From assembly GCF_049819085.1 (NCBI RefSeq), contig NZ_CP187419.1:5021518-5085517 (forward strand): a stretch of DNA of 64,000 bases, read 5' to 3'. The notes beneath the pieces were generated by a model that had not been told where the DNA came from, made no database searches, and saw only the letters and a list, made by a program, of their open reading frames with translations. The translations under genes and the position numbers were made by a program. The first letter of the stretch is position 1, and each line of letters starts with the position of its first letter. This stretch comes from Anatilimnocola sp. NA78. Lineage in GTDB: Bacteria > Planctomycetota > Planctomycetia > Pirellulales > Pirellulaceae. This document shows positions 3,349-43,251 of the stretch, piece by piece.

Positions 3349-5727
3349 CTACTTACCGCTGCGTTCCAAAATGCGGATGGTCATTTCGCCGATATCCGAC
3401 TGCCGCTCCGAAACCTTGCGAACTTCACCCTTCAGCACGTCGTCGAATTCACCTTCTGCTGGACGAGCCGACTCGAGCGATTCCGTACGGCGATTCACAC
3501 GAAGCTGAGCAGCCCGCAGCAACTTCAGTTCGGCCGAGTTAGGCAGCAAAGGCTCGTTGCCTCCACCACCACCGCCGCCGCCACCCTCGCCGCCGTCTTT
3601 TTGCTTCTGGGCTTTTTGCAACGATTCGATTAGTTCTTCGAGCGTGATCTCAATTTCTCGCTGCATCGTTTGCGTGTAACCGTCCGTGCGGAGGTTATCC
3701 GAAAGGAGCGTACCGACCGTGATCAAATCGTCTCGCAGTTGTTCGACCACATCCGGAAAGACCACGCTGGTACCATCATCGAGAATGATCTCAAGCGCCT
3801 GCTGAGCTTTGAAGGCCAGCGGGATGCGGTCGGACTGCCCGTCTTGCTTGATGATGGCCAGGCCTCGTTCATCTTCACCGAGCGACTTCAGCGTATTGCG
3901 ATCGCTGCGGGCCAGGTTGCCCATGTTGTCGACTTTCTTTTTGTCGATGACGAGCGTGCGAGCCGAAAGGTCTTTCTGCACCGCCAGCATCTCACGGAAG
4001 CGAGCCTCCAACTTGGCGAGCTTTTCGACCTGGGTCTCTTCGCGCAACTGAGCGAGCCGCTCTTCAATTTCCTTCAAGGCATCTTCGAGATCTTTGATCG
4101 CCTTGCCTTGCTTGCGCGAGGCATCGGAAGGGTCTTGCTTGCGAAGATCGCCGGACGCCTGCTCCATCGACTTTTGAGCTTGTTGAACCTTTTGCTGGCC
4201 GGGCTTTGGCTTACCACCTTCGCCACCGCCCGATTCACCGCCACCAGGCTGGCCACCGCCAGGCTGACCGCCACCTTCCCCACCCTTTTTCTCGTCCTGC
4301 TTCATCTTCTCCTGAATCTTGCCGGTTTGATTGGCAATATCGTCTTGCTTGCCGGCCATCTTCTCAAATGCTTCGGGCGGCAAGGAGGCAATGCGTTGCG
4401 ATTCCTTCTTCAGCTCTCCCAAGGCTCGCTGGAGATTTTCGAGCGCGGTCTGCTCGTCTTGCTGGGCCGCTTTCCCTTTCCCTTCTTGCAGTTTGCCTTC
4501 GGCCTGCTTTTGATTTTCGATGGCTTGCTTTAGCGGGCGCTCGCCAGCTTCCGGTGGTCGTTGTGGCTGAACCCCCGGTTGTCCGCCTCCCGATTGACCT
4601 TCACCGGGCTTACCTTCACCGGGCTTACCTTCTCCGGGCTTACCTTCTCCGGGCTTACCTTCTCCGGGCTTACCTTCTCCGGGCTTACCTTCTCCAGGCT
4701 TACCTTCTCCAGGCTTACCTTCACCGGGCTTACCTTCACCGGGCTTACCTTCTCCAGGCTTACCTTCACCGGGCTTACCTTCACCGGGCTTACCTTCACC
4801 GGGCTTACCTTCACCGGGCTTACCTTCACCGGGCTTACCTTCACCGGGCTTACCTTCACCGGGCTTACCTTCACCGGGCTTACCTTCACCGGGCTTACCT
4901 TCACCGGGCTTACCTTCACCGGGCTTACCTTCACCGGGCTTACCTTCACCGGGCTTACCTTCGGCGTTTCCCTCTGCGGCCGGTTTGTCGCCGGCTTCTT
5001 TGCCGATCTGTTCAGCAACCGATTGAGTTCCTTCGCGGACCTTGGCTTGTTCGCTGGCAACTTTGCCCAGGCCTTGGATGCCGCTTTCGCGAGCCGTTTC
5101 GGTATTTCCGATAACTCCCTTTTGCTGCTCGATCAGGGCTTCGACCGCTTTGATCTTGGCTTCGAGCGATTTCAGCGTGTCATCTTTATTGGCGACGCGA
5201 TCGGCCTCTCGCTTTTCGCCCTTTTGCTGCTGAATGACTTCTTCGATCTGCTTCTTCCATTCGCTGAGCTTTTCGAACTCCTCACGAATCTTGTCCTTGT
5301 CGTTTTTCTCATCCAGCAACAGGGCGAGCAGGTCTTTCAGATCGCCGAGAATCTTTTGTTCTTCCGCTTTGGCCGGATCGAGTTGCTGCTGATCGAGCAT
5401 GCGGGTGATGAGGGCCATCCGCCCCTTGATGCCCAAGGCCTGAGACTGCTTCAGCGCGTCGGCCAGTTTCTGGGCTCGCTCGGGTTCCGCTTTGGCGAGT
5501 GCCTGAGCCAGTTGATTGAACTTCCGTTCCAGGTCCTCCACCATTCGCTCGACGTGAGCCTGCCGGACACCAAGTGGCGTCGTTTTAAAGCTGTCTGCTT
5601 CACTCGGCTTCGTCTGCCCGCTGGCCACTCCCGCAAGCAACAGGCCCGCCGCTAACGCCGCCGTCATGCCCAAGCGACACCCTCGCGCGGTGAGGCAATT
5701 CCACATGCGGGAAGTCAAACGATCCAT
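3349..5727 (-). CDS. Secreted coiled-coil protein carrying a (GEGKP)n pentapeptide repeat array plus poly-Gly/Gly-Gln tracts
   Basis: ORF track 3349..6078. The most plausible start is MDRLTSRMW... with a following signal-like [15 protein letters not shown] (codon arithmetic gives 5727). About 24 GEGKP repeats, long charged coiled-coil segments, and a [15 protein letters not shown] tract. Confidence 0.55.
4597..4965. repeat. Intragenic 15-bp tandem repeat (gggcttaccttcacc, ~24 copies; minor ttcacc/ttctcc variants)
   Basis: Read directly in sequence lines 4561-4980. Encodes (GEGKP)n on the minus strand. Alternate-frame ORFs (HRAYL..., GLTFT..., KVSPV...) are artefacts of this repeat. Confidence 0.9.
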
Positions 5728-6017
5728 GAGCCAATCCTCCGGGGCAGCCTGCGAACCGACGCGCACGTCGCGCGGGAATTGCCAGGCAGCAACGCAACCG
5801 CAACGAGCACTGGCGTGGTAACTGTCCCTTAGTCCAGTTGGGGGGCAGTTTGGTTCAATCCACTCCAATATGACGGGCGAAACAGGCAGCCGCAAAAGCA
5901 AATGGCCAAATTTTCGCAAATTGGTCGGCGGGCGACGCTGAAGTGGGTGGGGCGAGCATGCCCAGAAGATGGTGCGAACGGCCGCGAGCGAAGCCCAGCT
6001 TTCCAATCCGTCCCTTT

Positions 6018-6158
6018 TGTCCAAAAACCCTCGCGATTGTTGGACGGGTGACTTCCTGTGGCCGCGGCTGCAACTCATTGCTGCGTCGTGCCTTGCTGTC
6101 TATTCGGCACATTTCCAAACACGCCTATCTGTCCAACAACCCCCTCAGTTTTTGGACA
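6018..6158. promoter_or_regulatory. Two copies of inverted repeat TGTCCAA-N15-TTGGAC(G/A) (6018-6046 and 6130-6158) upstream of pyrB
   Basis: Seen in sequence. Identical half-sites and identical 15-nt spacing, 112 bp apart, 350-480 bp upstream of the pyrB start, in a 600-bp non-coding leader. Confidence 0.35.
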
Positions 6159-6512
6159 CGTCGCTTTTTTGATGTACTGCGTTTTCTGGCAGCGGAACCA
6201 TCTCCGTACGAAACGCCCTCGCCACCGGCGATCAGGCTTCATCGCGCCGCTTGCCAGCCACCAAATTGTGCCAAAACCGAATTGCATTAGCTCCGCTTGC
6301 TGAATTATTGTCAATACAAGTTTGGCAATTCTTTAGCTTTCGATCTTCACCTAGAAATGAGTCGCTGGGGTGGCCCTGGCTTCACGATACATCCATGGGC
6401 GCTGTCTCCGTCCTTGCGTGATCGACTCAGGCTGCTAGAATCCTCGCAATTTTGTACGCCACGCACTCTGCTGACTCACGGGCAGAGCACCGCCAGAATT
6501 AGAGGATGCTGC

Positions 6513-7481
6513 ATGATCGCCGCTGCGGCCGATTTCGAAAAACTCCCCGCCGTTTGGAACCGCCGCCATTTGCTCGATCTGGAAAGCCTCTCCCCCGAAG
6601 AATTGACCTGCCTGCTCGATACGGCTGACCGCTTTAAAGCTGCGACGGACGATTGCCGTCGCAAAATCAGCGTGCTCACGGGGCGCACCCTGGCCAATCT
6701 GTTTTTTGAGAACTCCACCCGCACGCGCAACAGCTTTTCGCTCGCCGCGCGACGTCTGGGGGCCGATACCGTGGAGTTTTCGTCGTCCGGCAGCAGCACG
6801 GCCAAGGGCGAAACGGTGATCGACACGGCCAAGAACATCGAGGCCATGAATGTTGATGCAGTGGTGATTCGCCACCGCACGCCCGGTTCGCCCTACCTGC
6901 TTGCCAAGAATCTGGAGTGCTCGGTCATCAACGCCGGCGATGGCCCGCACGAACATCCCACGCAAGGCCTGCTCGATATTCTCACCATTCGCCAGCGCCG
7001 CGGCAGCTTAAAAGGGCTGACGGTGGCCCTGGTGGGAGATATTGCCCACAGCCGTACCGCGCGTTCGAACATCTGGGGGCTGCAAAAGCTCGGCGCGCAC
7101 GTGATTCTGTGTGGCCCCGCCACGCTGGTCTCGCGTCGCTGGGAAGAATTCGGCGTCGAGATTGCCTATCGGCTGGACGACATCGTCGATCGCTGCGACG
7201 TTCTGAACCTGCTGCGAATTCAATTCGAGCGACAGTACACGCGCCCGTTTCCTTCGGTGCGCGAGTACGCGTTGCTGTATGCCATGAACAGCGAACGGAT
7301 GCGCCGCGCCAAGTCCGACATTTTAATTATGGCTCCCGGCCCGATTAATCGCGGCGTCGAGATCACTCCCGATGTCGCCGACGGCCCGCATAGTGTGATC
7401 CTCGAACAAGTGACCAATGGCATTGCCGTCCGCATGGCAGTCCTTTGGCTCACGATGAACACGCCGCAAGCTTCGACTTAA
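6513..7481 (+). CDS. pyrB: Aspartate carbamoyltransferase catalytic subunit
   Basis: STRTR, HPTQ and LVGD motifs; ~320 aa from the internal start [11 protein letters not shown]. The ORF-track upstream extension lacks homology. Confidence 0.85.
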
Positions 7482-18962: not shown

Positions 18963-19956
18963 AGCCTCATCCACCTTACAAAGATCGCCAGCTGCCAAGA
19001 AACGCACTCGTCGAGCCACGGGCAAACAGCCCAGAATCTCCCACGGGCAAACGACCATGATAGCGCCCGCAGGCTAAAGTTCGCAATGGGCGGCTGTGGT
19101 TGCTACGGTCCCGTTGGGAGCGACTAGCTGGGTCGCGCCATTAGCTCCGGGTGGCAGGCAACCAAGCCGTGACAGTCGGTTTGACCGCACTTCGCCCAGC
19201 CGCCAGCCCCGTCTTCGCTGGCTATGCCGGCAACTGCCGCCCCCCGGCAAATGCCTCGCTCAACCTGCGGGGGGGCGAAAGTCCAAGGTGGAGACCTTGC
19301 CTGCCAATCCACGTTGCTCTGATAACCATTTTTGATAACCTTTTCACGCATTTTTCTGTGATAACTATTTGCCGTAACTCTTAGCCCATCCGCCTGTTAT
19401 GCCAACCAATCCGCAAATCATGGCGATCCGCTGATAACCAATTGTTATCTTTGCCCAAGTTGCCCCAACCGCGCCAGCAAGTGGCCGGCACCGCCGGAGA
19501 TACTCACTCGTCGTTTCGCACCAACAGGCTTCTCCAGACCCACGCTGGGGATTGCCATCAACCTCCCGTGCATCGGAGTCGCACGAACCGCCCGGCAGCC
19601 GTCCCCCTGGCTCGTCACCTGCGCACAGCGAGCGCAGGCTCTTCTCAACGAAGAACATCTACGCATCACATAGACAATATTTGCTGTGCATTAATTTACT
19701 TCATTTTCTCGACATGACAATTCATTGTCAAGTGTTTTTCGCTTGCGCCGCCAGTCAACACAGCAGACGGCACGCAGAGACACCGATCTGGCGTATCGAA
19801 TCAGCGGCTGAAGCCGGGACGCTGCCTACGGCTGCCGCAAGCTGGCTGCTGGCTTTCAACTCCCCTCTGCGTAGGCTATTCTGGGGGCACAAACGATTGC
19901 CAATGAACATTTGCTATTGAACGAACGACGGCTAATTCCCGCTGGAGCCTGCCTCA

Positions 19957-23787: not shown

Positions 23788-23826
23788 GAAAAGCCTCGCA
23801 CGGTTCGCCCTGCGAGGCTTTTTTCG
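23788..23826. terminator. Bidirectional intrinsic terminator: 13-bp GC stem with UUCG tetraloop flanked by A-run/T-run
   Basis: aaagcctcgcacgg-ttcg-ccctgcgaggcttttttt between convergent gpx and purQ. Read in lines 23761-23830. Confidence 0.65.
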
Positions 23827-36021: not shown

Positions 36022-36495
36022 TTACTGTGGCCCGCAAGCCTTGGCCATGTTCTGCATCATCTCTTCGGGCGTCAGATCGTACTGGTGATGGGCGATCGAC
36101 CAGCTATGGCCAAACGGGTCGGCGACAATGCCGTAACGATCGCCCCAAAAGGCATCGTTTATCGGCATCACCACGGTCGCACCGGCGGCCACTGCTTGGG
36201 CGAATAGCTTGTCGGCATCTTCGACCGAGAGATGAATCGTGACCGGCGTCCCCTTAAGCAACTTCGGCCCCAGGCAGCCCCACTCGGTGTTTTCGTCGAC
36301 CAGAAAAACCTTCGAATCGCCAATCCGCACGCAGGCATGCATCAGGCGACCATTTGGCCCCGGCATCCGCATTTCTTCAACGGCACCAAAGGCCTTCTTG
36401 TAGAACTCAATCGCGTTGGCCGCTCCATCGACGACCAGGTGCGGCGTTACGGTGTGCATTCCGTCGGCAATTCGCTTAGTGGCTGCTTTGGGCAT
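36022..36495 (-). CDS. VOC/glyoxalase-family (PhnB-like) protein
   Basis: 157 aa; HLVVDGAANAIEFYKKAFGA...; glyoxalase fold pattern. Confidence 0.65.
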   Translation of the reverse strand: MPKAATKRIADGMHTVTPHLVVDGAANAIEFYKKAFGAVEEMRMPGPNGRLMHACVRIGDSKVFLVDENTEWGCLGPKLLKGTPVTIHLSVEDADKLFAQAVAAGATVVMPINDAFWGDRYGIVADPFGHSWSIAHHQYDLTPEEMMQNMAKACGPQ

Positions 36496-37049
36496 CGTTC
36501 AGACTCCTATCAGTGGCAGTAAATGACGGCAGCCGCTGCGAGCAGCCACCTGCTGGAATTGCAGAATAGTCGTTCGCCCGTCCGGCGAATCGACATCGGC
36601 CAAAAAATCTGCGTGCCTGCTGCTCGCTCGATTCTTCAACACCCCCCTTTTGCCGTCTCTGCTCCTAACTGGTTCAACTGCAATCGTTTCCGGCCCAACT
36701 GCTGCTGTCTCAATGTTCCTCTTTGTTGAAAAATCCAAAGCTCCATCGCACCTTGCCAATTGCCTGCCTCCGCTCGGAACTGCTCGCTTGTGGGGATTCT
36801 GCTCGTGAAGATCCCTCACCTTGCCGGACAACTCGAATCAACGATGAGTTCGTCCGTTTTTGGACAGCTGCCAGTTCTTGCCTTACGCCGCAAGCACCGC
36901 GGAAATGACGACTTGCAACAAGTCACCCGTTTTTGCCACCACTCCCTTTTGTCCAAGAACCGTTAAAGCCAACTCGCTGCTTCCCACAAAACCGGCTGCC
37001 TTGCTTTTCGGACGTAAGTCTTCAATCGCGTTGCCTCACCAGAAAAACT

Positions 37050-37145
37050 GTGTTCACAAACCGGCCCGGTTTGTAAACACGACCTGCAACATCTCTCGGC
37101 TTTGGCGCGCCTGCGTGTTCAAAAACCCCACCGGTTTGTGAACAC
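37050..37145. promoter_or_regulatory. Pair of operator-like palindromes with half-site GTGTTCACAAACCGG (37050-37080, 14/15 arms; 37115-37145, 12/15 arms), centers 65 bp apart
   Basis: Read in lines 37021-37141: gtgttcacaaaccgg-c-ccggtttgtaaacac and gtgttcaaaaacccc-a-ccggtttgtgaacac. They lie inside a 1.3-kb stretch with no credible ORF. Confidence 0.5.
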
Positions 37146-37808
37146 CCGCCTGTTCCACACGTTTCGACTTACGTCGAATCGCAACGCCTTCGTGCAGAGT
37201 CGCCGCGCTTGCATCCCGCCAAGCCGCCCGATATAATCCCGACATTATCGCAATGTCGTTAGTTATTGTCAAGTGTTTATTATGGACCTCCTTGCACAAC
37301 AACCCCTGAACAGAATCGCATTACCCTGGCCCCTTCCTCTCTAGCCTCTAGCCCCGCTCCTCGCCAGATTCAATTCCAACAGTCGAGCCAGCAGTTCGTC
37401 GTCGGTGAGCGTGACGGGCCATCCGCAATCGGCCAAGATCAACTCTGCGGGCACGACTCACCGCGATTCCGCAATTGGATTGAGGAAACCCGAAGCGTGA
37501 GCGAGGAGCGCGCTGTGGAAGTCTTGAACTGAACTCCCCGGGGGTTCGTTTACAAATCGTTCGTGCGATGTTCGAGGGCAGAAACGAATGGTCTGGCCAC
37601 GACGACACTTCCGTGCGGCGAAGAGCACTCTCCTCGCTCACGCTTCGGGTTACCTGAACAGGCGAGCGTGACGCCCGTAGTCAAGTCGAACGAATTCCGC
37701 GGCCAGCTTGGTATGGCAACGACGAACTAGCATCCACCGCTGTTGTAAGGGGATGCTGTCGAAATTCAGCCTAACGAATCCCTCGCATTGCTTGAGGCGC
37801 ACGTCGCG

Positions 37809-38267
37809 TTATTTCAGTTCCACCTTCAAATCGGTCGAGCCCGCGGGGGGAATTTCCAGCGACAGACCACTCGTGGTGGTGCTGCCGAACTTGGCGGGAA
37901 TGGGCGATTTGAACCCGCCGGGCGGTTCCGGCGCGAGGACTCCCGGCTCGATCTCTTGCGCGCCGCTCACGGAAACCGTCAGCGTGTACTTGCCGGCCGG
38001 AGCGCCTTCCTTTTCGCCATACGACTTCAGCGCGAAGCGACCGTCGCTCCCGGTCTTGGCGGTGGCTGTGACTTTGCCTTCCGAATGCTGGAAGGAGACG
38101 TCCGCGTTGGCGATCGGACTTCCTTGGTACGTCACCGTTCCGGCTGCTGGCACCGTGGGGAGTTGTTCGGGGCCGGCAGGCCCGCCACCAGTGCAGCCCA
38201 CCAGAGACAAAACCACACTCGAAAGGACAACGGCGAGGATTTGCAAAGACAATATTTTCGAAGACAA
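37809..38267 (-). CDS. Lipoprotein with carboxypeptidase-regulatory/transthyretin-like domain (DUF1559 partner)
   Basis: Lipobox LSLVGCTGG. GTVTYQGSPIANADVSF...DGRFAL pattern. Directly downstream of the DUF1559 gene. Confidence 0.65.
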   Translation of the reverse strand: MSSKILSLQILAVVLSSVVLSLVGCTGGGPAGPEQLPTVPAAGTVTYQGSPIANADVSFQHSEGKVTATAKTGSDGRFALKSYGEKEGAPAGKYTLTVSVSGAQEIEPGVLAPEPPGGFKSPIPAKFGSTTTSGLSLEIPPAGSTDLKVELK

Positions 38268-38456
38268 GAAAGAGACTCCAGAAGAAGTTGCGGAGATGGA
38301 GATTCTGAAAATCGCAGGCCAGGCGAGCCTGTTGGCAGGCTGTCTCGCTTGTCGCGCAATGATGCGTGGCGCGACAAGAAAGTGCGACCACTCAGCAAGC
38401 AGGCCGGCGAAGGCGATTCGCCGGCTTCAACACGACAGGACCGACGGAAGCAAACC

Positions 38457-39515
38457 TTAGTCGAGCTGCAGGCTCTCAGAGCCCGAGCGGCTGCCCAGAG
38501 CGCCGAAGACGCCGTAGGGGCTCAGGCCCGTGGGGTTCTTCCCGTCGGCGTTCAGGTCGCCGCAGTTGATGTTTTGCGTGATAAACCGTACCGAGCCGTC
38601 TCCCATCGCCGCATTCACGCCGCCCGGGTGATAGCTGCTGGGCGGATACAGGCCGTTCTGAGCATCGTGGGCGTTCCAAGCACAAGAGACCGAGTTCGGC
38701 GGAGCATTCGTGGTCAGACCATGAAAGCCCATGCCGCCATCGCCCCAGCGCACACCCGCCCAAGCGCCGGTCGTCGAGATCGCCCAGGTCTTGGTGGTGG
38801 TGTTGTACTGCGAGAGGCAGCCATTGGGCGTCAAGAACCATTCGCCCCCCTGGTGGGCCGTCAGCGTCGACTTCACGCTGCTGATTCCCTTACGCCGTTC
38901 AGAGACGGCAATCGTGTTGCTCAGTCCGTCCGTCACGTCGGCCAGGCGGAAGCCCTTGTCGGTGTTCGTGCGACCAAACATGCCACGGCTTTGATTGTCG
39001 GCGTTGTTCTGGCCGATCGAGTCGCCGCTGCACAGCATGTAGTTCGTTTTGCCGATGCCACCCGTCGTGGTGAACGCGTCGGAGGGACAAGTCCAACTCT
39101 TCACCGTGTTTTGCCAGGGAGTATAAGAGCCGTTCCACGGTTCCGGACCACCAGGGGCGTAGGTCGTGGCGCCAATCACCTGTTGAGTCATGACCAAATC
39201 GTGGAGCGGCTTCTGTTCCATGAAAGGGAGTAGGGTGATGAACCCGCTCTTGCGCCCTTGATAGCTGCTGGGGTACGCGGTGAAGCGACCCTCGCGGAAC
39301 GGCAAGTAGCCATAAGTGTCGTGATGATTGTGGAGCGCGATGCCAAGTTGCTTGTGATGGTTGCTGCACTGGATGCGACGAGCCGCTTCGCGCGCGGCCT
39401 GCACCGCAGGAAGCAACAGGGCGACCAAGACGCCAATAATGGCAATGACAACCAACAGTTCGACCAGGGTGAACCCCCTGGCACGAACGCGATCTCGAAA
39501 CATGAGGGGAGTCAC
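38457..39515 (-). CDS. DUF1559 protein with prepilin-type N-terminal cleavage/methylation domain
   Basis: [54 protein letters not shown]... A family hallmark of Planctomycetota. Confidence 0.8.
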
Positions 39516-39992
39516 GTTTGACCTCGTACAGTGAGAAATAAATGAAAAAAAACCAGAGTTTTTCGTCGGCGCGATGCGACAATTCGCAGTTTTCCAGTCC
39601 AGCTCGGAAGTGTCAAGAAAAATAATTAGAACACGAACCTTTTGCTGCCCTTCATAACACCCATAAGGGTGGACTATGGCTTACTAGATGCCTTTAGCCC
39701 GCCAATTTGTCGCACCCATGCATCCCAGCTGGCTGGTGGGGGAACGAAAAAGCTGCAACGAAAGTCGTATGCCAGCGTATCAATATCCCTCATAAGAAAG
39801 ATTAGGGACCGAGATTCTTGCGCAGCGCCCGATAGCGCTCTGTGCAACATCGGCAGCAGGAAAGCGAGCGCAGACGGTGAATGAACCTGGCAAAAAGGGG
39901 ATCACTCCACTTCACGTTCGCCTTTGTTCCGCTTGGTATGATTAGGCCCATACGCAGGATGACATCGCAGTCGATCTTTCCGCGAGGCACCC

Positions 39993-41090
39993 ATGGCAAC
40001 GACGAACGAGCAACAACCTTTGTTGTATGCAGATGCTGTCGAAACGATTCCCGCTGACGAGTCGGAAGATATTCGGCTGACGATTGCGGCGATGCAGCGG
40101 GTGCTGGAGCAGACGTTTCAAAAGAGTGGTCAACGGCGGCGCGATGTCCATTTGAAGTCGCACGGCTGCGCACTCGGGACGATGCAAGTGCTGCCGAACT
40201 TGCCAGCGGAACTGGCCCAGGGCATCTTTGCTCGCGAGCAGACTTTCGAGGCGGTGGTGCGGTTCTCGAATGCGGCCAGTTCGCCCCAGCCTGACTATGT
40301 GCCCGATGGTCGTGGTCTGGCCGTGAAGGTTTTGGACGTCGGAGGCGAATCGCTCACCGCGGAAAGTGGCACTGGCGCGCAAGCGAGCACCGCGACGCAA
40401 GACTTCGTCATGGTCAATCATCCGGTCTTCATTGCCCGCAATGTGAAGGACTACTTGCGCATTCAGCAGACCATCGCCGACACCGGCGACAACAAGCTGG
40501 CGACGCTCAAAGATGCGTTGACGGGTGGCGATTGGAACCCGCTGAATTGGCACTGGCGCGAAGCACTCACGGCTGCCCAAATCGCCAGCAAGTTGCCCGC
40601 CCATCCCGCCAGTTTGACTTACTTCAGCATGGCGCCGATCCGCTTTGGCGATTACGTCGCCAAGTATCGCGTGCGGCCCGCCTGCGAGATTGCTGGCTCC
40701 ATTCTCGAACTCGTGAATCAACTCGGCCAGCAAGCCGATGCGTTTCGCTGGATGCTCGAAGAAACGCTGCGATCTCAGTACCTGCTGTTCGAATTTCAAA
40801 TTCAGCTGCGAACCTCAGCCGAGAAGATGCCCATCGAAGATGCGATGGTGGAATGGCCGGAGAGCGAATCGCACTATCGCACGGTGGCGTTGCTATTATT
40901 GCCCCGTCAGGAAATCGCGACGGCTGAGCAACGCGCGACCTGCGATCAGCTGATGTTCGATGTGTGGCACGCAGTCGCGGCGCACCGACCACTAGGGGGC
41001 ATCAACCGCCTGAGGCGCGAAGTCTATCCCATCTCTGCTGCCTGGCGACGCCAGACAGCGAGCGAACATCCGGCGAGCGAATCGCCCTAA
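39993..41090 (+). CDS. Catalase-related (mini-catalase/heme peroxidase-like) protein
   Basis: RDVHLKSHGCALG, AVVRFSNA and DGRGLAVKV match the catalase heme-core motifs; 365 aa, no C-terminal catalase extension. Confidence 0.6.
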   Translation: MATTNEQQPLLYADAVETIPADESEDIRLTIAAMQRVLEQTFQKSGQRRRDVHLKSHGCALGTMQVLPNLPAELAQGIFAREQTFEAVVRFSNAASSPQPDYVPDGRGLAVKVLDVGGESLTAESGTGAQASTATQDFVMVNHPVFIARNVKDYLRIQQTIADTGDNKLATLKDALTGGDWNPLNWHWREALTAAQIASKLPAHPASLTYFSMAPIRFGDYVAKYRVRPACEIAGSILELVNQLGQQADAFRWMLEETLRSQYLLFEFQIQLRTSAEKMPIEDAMVEWPESESHYRTVALLLLPRQEIATAEQRATCDQLMFDVWHAVAAHRPLGGINRLRREVYPISAAWRRQTASEHPASESP

Positions 41091-42373: not shown

Positions 42374-42439
42374 GCCGGCAACAAGCGGTACTCGGCGATG
42401 TCCCGGCGCTTCGACCAACTGCCGGCCCTGCCCCGCCGG

Positions 42440-42960
42440 GTTTCCCCTCCGCTGAACAGTCCTCCGCATCCCTCTCGGCATTCCATTTTTGATAACTTTT
42501 TGCGCGAAAAATCGAAACCAACGCCTCGCTCTAACCCGTTCTGCTCCAAACTATTGCGATCACAACCGACCCAAAATCACCCGTTTCCTGATAACCATTT
42601 GATAACCACTCCTGCCCCTGTTCACTCCGCAGCCTGAACAGGCCCTAAACAGGGGGTCCAGTCTTCGTGGCGGCAGACCTCCTGGTCTGCCTTCCCCCGG
42701 CCTCTCCATTCTCTTCTGACGTCGCGGCAATCCTCCCGAACTTGCCTCGCTGAACAGTCCCTGTTCAGCGCTTCTGACAGCCCGTCTTGATAACTTTTTG
42801 CGCGAAAAATCGCATCCGCTTCCTCGCCCTAACCAGTTCTGCTTCAAGCCATTGCAATCAGAACCTCCCCAAAATCACCCGTTTCCCGATAACCGTTTGA
42901 TAACCACTCCTGCCCCCTGTGCGCTCCCTAGCCTGAACAGGCCCTAAACGGGTGGCTCAG
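42440..42960. repeat. Two tandem ~298-bp non-coding repeats, each with a TGAACAG/CTGTTCA hairpin, a TTGATAACTTTTTGCGCGAAAAATCG box and a CTGATAACC-N4-GATAACC box
   Basis: Period of 298 bp measured from gctgaacag (42451 / 42749) and ttgataac (42489 / 42787). ~85% identity between copies. Confidence 0.85.
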
Positions 42961-43251
42961 ACTGCCCCTCCTCGGTTAACCGAGCCGCTTGCGGCCGTTG
43001 AACTGGCAATCAAGTCAGTCCACACTTCTCCCGCGCAACCGCGTGGGTTAACCAAATACTGGGGCAGTAGGTCCAGGAACTCCGTACCTGACGACCTCGC
43101 TGAGTTGCAGTCAGGCGCGCGACGCTGGCCTTGCCCGACTCCGCCACTCGCTCCCATAAACCTTAAAATGTCCTTGACACTAAGTCAACAAATTGTAACA
43201 ATAATTCGGTGTGACACCGTCCGGCCAAAGTGCCCGGACCGCTCAACTCCG

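Follow-up and report, generated by a model that had tools for sequence, protein, structure and literature searches.

The genome of the planctomycete strain NA78, described in 2026 as A. aquadivae NA78T, harbours a 1.3-kb stretch (positions 36496-37808) that is poor in open reading frames (ORFs) and lies between a VOC gene on its left (36022-36495, minus strand) and a lipoprotein/DUF1559 gene pair on its right (37809-39515, minus strand). The VOC protein shows 100% identity to a protein of Anatilimnocola sp. NA78 (family Pirellulaceae). Coordinates refer to the window, the whole stretch of 64,000 nucleotides that was analysed. A first-pass annotation of this DNA had drawn attention to two palindromes in the ORF-poor stretch that are built on the same half-site, and had read them as an operator pair for a dimeric DNA-binding protein, controlling a transcript such as a small RNA (sRNA). 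The palindromes may rather represent the two stem-loops of a compact minus-strand transcription unit, which recurs upstream of pyrB and could give rise to a non-coding RNA.

The view that the stretch lacks a credible ORF holds, since all of its ORFs comprise at most 110 amino acids and a Pfam search with ten of them yielded no significant match, the best being LysM with an E-value of 0.12, below the family cut-off. The Rfam scan that the first-pass annotation had called for matched no family at the gathering threshold in the whole window, and at E-values up to 10 it returned a single chance-level small nucleolar RNA match for 36496-37808 and no match for the region upstream of pyrB. Neither tRNA nor transfer-messenger RNA genes were found in a scan of the window, and Tandem Repeats Finder detected no periodic array in this spacer or in the spacer upstream of pyrB.

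Two palindromes of one motif family

The first palindrome, GTGTTCACAAACCGG-C-CCGGTTTGTAAACAC at 37050-37080, has arms that are complementary at 14 of 15 positions around one central base. The second, GTGTTCAAAAACCCC-A-CCGGTTTGTGAACAC at 37115-37145, has arms complementary at 12 of 15 positions and is best seen as a 5-nt loop closed by a 13-nt stem that contains one mismatch. Positions, sequences, common half-site and the start-to-start distance of 65 nt are all as first described. The accompanying claim that such palindromes are improbable by chance was addressed with a census of palindromes with 15+15 arms and a spacer of 0-5 nt, in which the whole window was compared with 200 Markov-1 randomisations. 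Three loci reached at least 14/15, compared with 0.025 expected, so that the claim stands for 37050-37080, but it does not for 37115-37145 taken alone, which is not rare because 11 loci reached at least 12/15 with 5.2 expected. The pair is nevertheless non-random, since the right arm of 37115-37145 matches the first half-site exactly over 15 nt. The two remaining palindromes with 14/15 arms, at 23789 and 55267 of the window, are located at the 3' ends of genes, indicating that long palindromes in the NA78 genome are usually terminator hairpins. A long palindrome pair with a common half-site does not by itself establish an operator pair, tempting as this misreading is.

Both palindromes belong to a family with the consensus TGTYCAMAAACC-N5-GGTTTKTGRACA, of which the 64 kb contain four full copies (nhmmer E-values of 3e-8 to 4e-6), all with an identical geometry of a 12-nt arm, a 5-nt loop and a 12-nt arm in a symmetric scan. 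Two copies, at 37051-37079 and 37116-37144, are of a TGTTC subtype, and two, at 6018-6046 and 6130-6158 upstream of pyrB, are of a TGTCC subtype. The latter copies explain the recurring words that had been noticed in the pyrB-upstream region, which are real and represent half-sites of the same motif: the half-site word TGTYCAMRAACC with at most one mismatch occurs 13 times in the window, compared with 1.9 expected. Orphan half-sites are found at 36855-36866 (TGTCCAAAAACG, minus strand, from the half-site word search), at 36950-36961, 47083 and 61955; the second of these is part of a longer segment (TCCCTTTTGTCCAAGAACC, 36943-36961, plus strand) that is identical at 18 of 19 positions to 6011-6029 upstream of pyrB. 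A degenerate third palindrome-like site, TTCCCACAAAAC-N10-GCTTTTCGGACG, is present at 36981-37014 and is weak, with 9+9 of 24 positions. The half-site search that had been proposed for defining a regulon thus did return further copies, but these resemble a repeated unit and not a regulon.

A predicted minus-strand transcription unit

A promoter scan of 36496-37808 returned one strong site, which is located on the minus strand (37272-37244), reads TTGACA-17-(TG)cGATAAT and resembles a sigma-70-type promoter with 11/12 matches and an extended -10 element, the predicted start being near 37237. The small palindrome that had been noted at 37241 is confirmed as GACATTATCGCAATGTC (37241-37257); it overlaps the -10 box of the promoter-like site and has no counterpart in the paralogue upstream of pyrB. 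From the predicted start the minus strand would run through about 95 nt of 5' sequence (predicted 5' segment 37146-37237), the hairpin P2 formed by the second palindrome (nhmmer E=3e-8), a 34-nt spacer (37081-37114) that reads ..AAAGCCGAGAGATGTTGCAG.., and the hairpin P1 (37041-37080), whose stem has 14 pairs on the minus strand, one of them G-U, and is followed by AGTTTTTCTG. In the minus-strand orientation, P1 together with AGTTTTTCTG is scored as an intrinsic terminator, and this hairpin with its U-run would end a non-coding RNA of about 200 nt near 37041. The predicted 200-nt RNA (37237 to 37038) has a folding energy of -86 kcal/mol (z=-4.8). That part of the first-pass annotation which proposed a non-coding RNA locus has therefore gained support, in that about 200 nt of the minus strand are enclosed by a near-consensus promoter on one side and a hairpin resembling a terminator on the other, and a paralogue exists 31 kb away.

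When both strands of the window were searched, TTGACA-N16-18-NNTAAT had only two matches, 37272-37244 and 6314-6286, both on the minus strand, although this rarity is partly post hoc because the pattern was relaxed after both sites had been seen. Each of the two promoter-like sites precedes a palindrome pair on the same strand, at distances of 98 and 127 nt, respectively. The second site (TTGACA-17-GCTAAT, 6286-6314) has TTGACAATAA and TAATG in common with the first at the same spacing, and it heads a paralogous unit of the same layout that extends on the minus strand from 6314 to about 6010, upstream of pyrB. The hairpins of this unit, both of the TGTCC subtype, are b (TGTCCAACAACC-CCCTC-AGTTTTTGGACA, 6130-6158, minus strand, nhmmer E=3e-6) and a (TGTCCAAAAACC-CTCGC-GATTGTTGGACG, 6018-6046, minus strand, E=4e-6). 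Over the segment bounded by the -35 box and the first hairpin, the two loci align better than shuffled sequences (z about 3.3, p 0.001-0.005), the 5' segments sharing the blocks TTGGYGG, GCAAGCG and GGCGTT, and the similarity fades outside the stretch from the promoter to the last hairpin. That two units are found within 64 kb suggests many copies genome-wide or a local duplication.

The start of pyrB at 6513 agrees with the deposited protein, and the spacer upstream of it measures about 790 nt, provided that the 909-amino-acid ORF on its other side starts near 5727, as a signal-peptide-like segment indicates. In this ORF (3349-6078, minus strand), which includes a long stretch of perfect (PGEGK)n repeats, the initial ~117 codons have a non-coding appearance and the start is probably near 5727; as listed, the ORF overlaps palindrome a. 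Independently of the palindrome unit, a promoter-like element of pyrB itself, TTGCGT-16-(TGC)TAGAAT at 6414-6441 followed by CAATTTTGTACGC, is kept in three relatives (L104, L105/L106 and L107).

A related hairpin doublet in a metagenome contig

A third occurrence was found on a metagenome contig with 59% G+C (L013), which comes from a Pirellulales-like organism and carries the 3' end of tgt, a 324-nt spacer and then rpmJ-rpsM-rpsK. Its spacer holds a hairpin doublet, GTGTTCACAAACC-CAGCC-GGTTTGTGAACAC at 730-760 and GCGTTCACAAAC-TCCGGC-GGTTTGTAAGCG at 795-825, with the same start-to-start distance of 65 nt as in NA78. The sequence between the hairpins is identical at 20 of 34 positions when the plus strand of the contig is compared with the minus strand of the window, compared with 6 of 34 in the opposite orientation, so that the minus strand of the window corresponds to the coding strand of all L013 genes. 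A near-perfect long palindrome spans about the first 118 nt of the same contig and probably results from misassembly at that end.

This contig was the only related one among nine matches in a scan of a metagenome collection. The scan pattern, TGTTYAMAAACC-N1-7-GGTTTKTRAACA, required TGTTY and was also used for a genome collection, so that both scans covered the TGTTC subtype and excluded the TGTCC subtype; the ten matches among genomes were all unrelated AAAAACC/GGTTTTT terminator hairpins from low-GC taxa. Scans of viral contigs for both subtypes returned unrelated hairpins only, besides a resolvase-associated palindrome that is discussed below. A search of a protein collection with the translated module, directed at spurious ORFs, gave no candidate, the module was absent from those contigs of the closest Tgt relatives of L013 whose DNA was available, and BLAST searches of plasmids and phages with the unit gave nothing relevant.

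Coordinated changes in the hairpin arms

An alignment of the four hairpins of the window and the two of L013, several of which are local duplicates and thus represent few independent events, shows standard pairs at 90% (sense strand) and 87% (antisense strand) of the positions, compared with 30-47% in slid controls. Three to four pairs differ on both sides: at arm positions 2 and 5, T-A is replaced by C-G, and at position 8, C-G is replaced by A-U. None of the six palindromes is of mixed subtype, the same variant being present on both arms, and the loops are not conserved. The coordinated arm changes point to selection for self-complementarity, which may act on an RNA or a DNA hairpin and on either strand.

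Absence of the units from related genomes

The pyrB locus was compared with that of relatives having 93-95% identical PyrB proteins, which were reached through a 90% protein cluster. One of them (L104) is syntenic at pyrB, with conserved blocks that match 5853-5914 and 6409-6459, the pyrB promoter being located in the second; the blocks are separated by 177 nt in L104 and by 494 nt in NA78, and L104 does not have the unit. In another (L107) the pyrB promoter is kept, the upstream gene differs and the unit is likewise absent. Around the other unit, A. aggregata has the VOC gene and a catalase-family gene as adjacent, divergent neighbours that are 245 nt apart, compared with 1.2 kb in NA78, and the lipoprotein/DUF1559 pair is not located between them. 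The 245-nt spacer shows no similarity to the ORF-poor stretch of NA78 save for a short motif beside the VOC start, and no copy of the family was found in about 116 kb of related Pirellulales DNA.

The boundary of the original spacer in NA78 is probably marked by a decayed copy of the 5' end of the catalase-family gene located at 39993, which was the sole match when 36496-37808 was compared by tblastx with the rest of the window and two loci. The duplicate (37684-37775, plus strand) comprises the first ~60 nt of the gene plus ~30 nt upstream, resembles 39962-40055, and contains stop codons, as seen in its translation MATTN*HPPLL*GDAVEIQP. The lipoprotein/DUF1559 pair thus sits between direct repeats of about 90 nt, and the ancestral spacer between the VOC and catalase-family genes would correspond to 36496 to about 37712. 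Judging from these comparisons, in which neither unit was present at the syntenic site of the nearest relatives, both appear to be NA78-specific and to have been inserted into long spacers that have diverged; the family would then behave like dispersed sibling sRNA genes or like a promoter-carrying miniature repeat.

Interpretation of the repeated unit

A unit that is present twice in the window, and whose hairpin doublet recurs in another organism, fits an sRNA or repeat-element locus better than an operator pair. We tentatively favour, at a probability that falls somewhat short of even, a lineage-specific dispersed unit that is transcribed into a two-hairpin RNA of about 200 nt, being either a candidate sibling sRNA or a promoter-carrying miniature repeat; transcription, termination at P1 and any action at the RNA level are predicted from the arrangement of promoter and hairpins. 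Multicopy sibling sRNAs include the cuckoo/ar7 RNAs of Rhizobiales as well as the Qrr and PrrF paralogues. The NA78 unit is similar to these in combining a predicted promoter, two stem-loops and, in one copy, a Rho-independent terminator in a compact arrangement, and in having paralogues in unrelated intergenic contexts with conservation limited to the stretch from the promoter to the last hairpin. By contrast, its stems are conserved rather than its loops or single-stranded seeds, it is not found at syntenic positions in relatives, and it has no Rfam family. Our literature search on Planctomycetota found no description of sRNAs or small repeat elements. Compared with ordinary intrinsic terminators, P1 likewise has a 14-pair stem and a U-run on the minus strand, and the other long palindromes of the window are located at gene ends; P2 and the hairpins upstream of pyrB and in L013 lack the U-run, however, and the NA78 stems are conserved in sequence across loci, which is not known of ordinary terminator stems.

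Several observations weigh against an sRNA. Apart from the post hoc element in the rarity of the promoter pattern, the U-run is present after P1 only, the copy upstream of pyrB having none after its last hairpin, and the RNA predicted for that copy is not unusually stable (z=-1.4). Neither the promoter nor the U-run is conserved in L013. Pairing is equally good on the antisense strand, so that G-U pairs do not indicate which strand is relevant, and the stems are conserved in sequence and not in pairing alone, which would also be expected if a protein recognised them as DNA. Finally, the units are not kept at the syntenic sites of A. aggregata and L104. Most established sRNAs are conserved at syntenic positions.

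The main competing explanation, which we consider doubtful, is selfish DNA similar to repetitive extragenic palindromes (REPs), their REPIN doublets or miniature inverted-repeat transposable elements (MITEs), such that the palindromes spread as single-strand hairpins in doublets with the help of a transposase encoded elsewhere, and transcription is incidental. It would account for two units plus orphan and decayed half-sites within 64 kb, for the insertion behaviour seen in the enlarged spacers at both loci, for the third copy in an unrelated context of another organism, and for pairing that is symmetric between the strands with coordinated arm changes; a second, unrelated dispersed inverted repeat (37480-37658) is found in the same stretch. 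Like REP, REPIN and bacterial interspersed mosaic elements (BIMEs), the NA78 sites are imperfect extragenic palindromes of about 30 nt that form close doublets, vary in presence among relatives and have decayed copies nearby (PMC3733652). REP families without terminal tags, as well as REPs in Planctomycetes, have also been described (PMC3733652). Against this explanation, the flanks of the six palindromes share no GTAG or CGTC tag as defined there. The NA78 unit also differs in its apparently low copy number (four full copies plus fragments in the window) and in containing a promoter and some 100 nt that are not palindromic, and the near-consensus promoter at a similar distance in both copies is left unexplained. 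Read from the sequence, the unit has neither terminal inverted repeats nor target-site duplications, and a Pfam search with 44 window proteins found no transposase, HUH/REP-associated tyrosine transposase (RAYT) genes included, and no recombinase or DNA-binding regulator. The collection scans for the TGTTC subtype gave only one related locus, and the ~116 kb of related Pirellulales DNA contained no copy. Promoter-carrying MITEs are exemplified by the Correia elements of Neisseria. Like these, the NA78 unit is small, non-coding and dispersed, and would supply intergenic DNA with hairpin-forming repeats and a promoter that looks functional; it differs in that its ends have no terminal inverted repeats or target-site duplication and that only two units are seen in the window.

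Binding of a dimeric helix-turn-helix protein, be it a transcription factor or a resolvase/invertase-type protein, to the 12+5+12 sites is closer to the original proposal and seems to us unlikely. If so, the palindromes would be operators or res-like accessory sites, for which it speaks that the half-sites are conserved in sequence and the 5-nt spacer is fixed in length and not in sequence at six sites from two organisms. Moreover, the half-site TGTTCAAAAACC agrees at 10 of 12 positions with the half-site TTATCAAAAACC of Din invertases, both ending in AAACC (PMC3241671), and two IMG/VR contigs have a very similar palindrome, GTGTCCAACAACC-GATC-GGTTGTTGGACAC, that precedes a small serine recombinase gene by about 55 nt. 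In these high-GC contigs (L125, 1143-1172; L115, 5433-5462) the gene encodes a protein with Resolvase and HTH_7 domains, and the palindrome, which is near the TGTCC subtype of NA78 in sequence, is probably that recombinase's own site. As in the hix, gix and res sites of the Din family and resolvases, sites with the same half-site are clustered within about 100 bp in NA78, with 12-bp half-sites of which up to 10 of 12 positions match the hix half-site; Din sites, however, have a 12+2+12 arrangement (PMC3241671 Table 3), whereas the centre in NA78 is 5 bp, and the resulting odd site length of 29 bp is incompatible with a 2-bp central crossover. The NA78 sites flank no invertible segment, and the window contains no regulator or recombinase gene or remnant: tblastn queries with two resolvases and a large serine recombinase produced no match with an E-value under 1, and there was no Resolvase Pfam match, although a regulator may be encoded at a distance. 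The context does not support an operator pair either. The sites lie at +93 to +190 relative to the predicted start (37237) of the sole strong promoter of the stretch, and those of the other locus 255-395 nt upstream of the conserved pyrB promoter; the centre-to-centre distances of the two loci differ (65 and 112 nt), so that helical phasing is not kept; and the sites are absent from the orthologous spacers of A. aggregata, L104 and L107. That both arms always carry the same variant is what selection for self-complementarity predicts. Least likely, and in our view very improbable, are long structured 5' leaders, in which the two promoters drive the minus-strand genes (VOC at 36495 and the 909-amino-acid secreted protein) through leaders of 550-740 nt and the hairpins act as attenuators or stability elements. 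Both units do point toward a minus-strand gene, an excess of G over C on the minus strand runs from 37400 down to the VOC start, and P1 is terminator-like. However, the two downstream genes are unrelated, the similarity of the paralogues ends at the last hairpin, and the L013 doublet follows a gene rather than preceding one. In addition, the motif GAATCGACATC near the VOC start is, as judged by eye, shared with A. aggregata, which has no unit, and this suggests that VOC has its own proximal control region.

Four further candidates were rejected. An origin of replication (oriC) with a cluster of DnaA boxes does not fit: compared by eye, the half-site and a DnaA box agree at no more than 6-7 of 9 positions, the region shows no AT enrichment, and the 324-nt L013 spacer contains the module as well. 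For sigma-54 enhancer sites a downstream GG-N10-GC element is missing, for a PyrR binding site there is no Rfam match, and for a leader peptide or attenuator no small ORF is conserved between the paralogues.

Other features of the window

Separate from the hairpin unit, a 35-nt inverted repeat is located at 37480-37658, its arms (37480-37514 and 37624-37658) being 89% complementary and enclosing a 109-nt loop. The arm core CCTCGCTCACGCTTCGGGTT recurs in other planctomycete-like DNA: it is present as an inverted pair between convergent genes in a Pirellulales-like contig (L103, 3038-3057 and 3102-3123), and it is also found in seven high-GC IMG/VR contigs (L108-L114), where it occurs as single copies, tandem copies or hairpins. 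Another ORF-free spacer of about 890 nt (19060-19950) contains a third TTGACAAT promoter-like site at 19731 on the minus strand, which has AAACACTTGACAAT in common with the promoter-like site at 37272-37244, and four direct GGTTATCA words at 19320-19440. The strongest excess of C over G in the window, with a skew of -0.36 in 500-nt windows, is found in the ORF-poor region 42374-43251; other values below -0.2 occur only in the ORF-poor stretches at 19.2 and 36.5-37.0 kb and in a repeat-rich gene segment at 4.2-4.7 kb.

Significance for planctomycete genomes

The unit is a concrete candidate, with a predicted promoter, two conserved stem-loops, a predicted product of about 200 nt, a paralogue in the same genome region and a homologue in a metagenome. 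A more far-reaching idea, which we regard as speculative and rather improbable, is that it represents an undescribed Pirellulaceae family of promoter-carrying double-hairpin units that insert into intergenic DNA, enlarge spacers to "gene deserts" and create small transcription units, and whose 12+5+12 stems, resembling invertase half-sites, might bind an unknown helix-turn-helix or recombinase-type protein. If the unit is transcribed, it would establish a new planctomycetal sRNA family; if it is mobile, it would help to explain the origin of the unusually long intergenic spacers of the NA78 genome.

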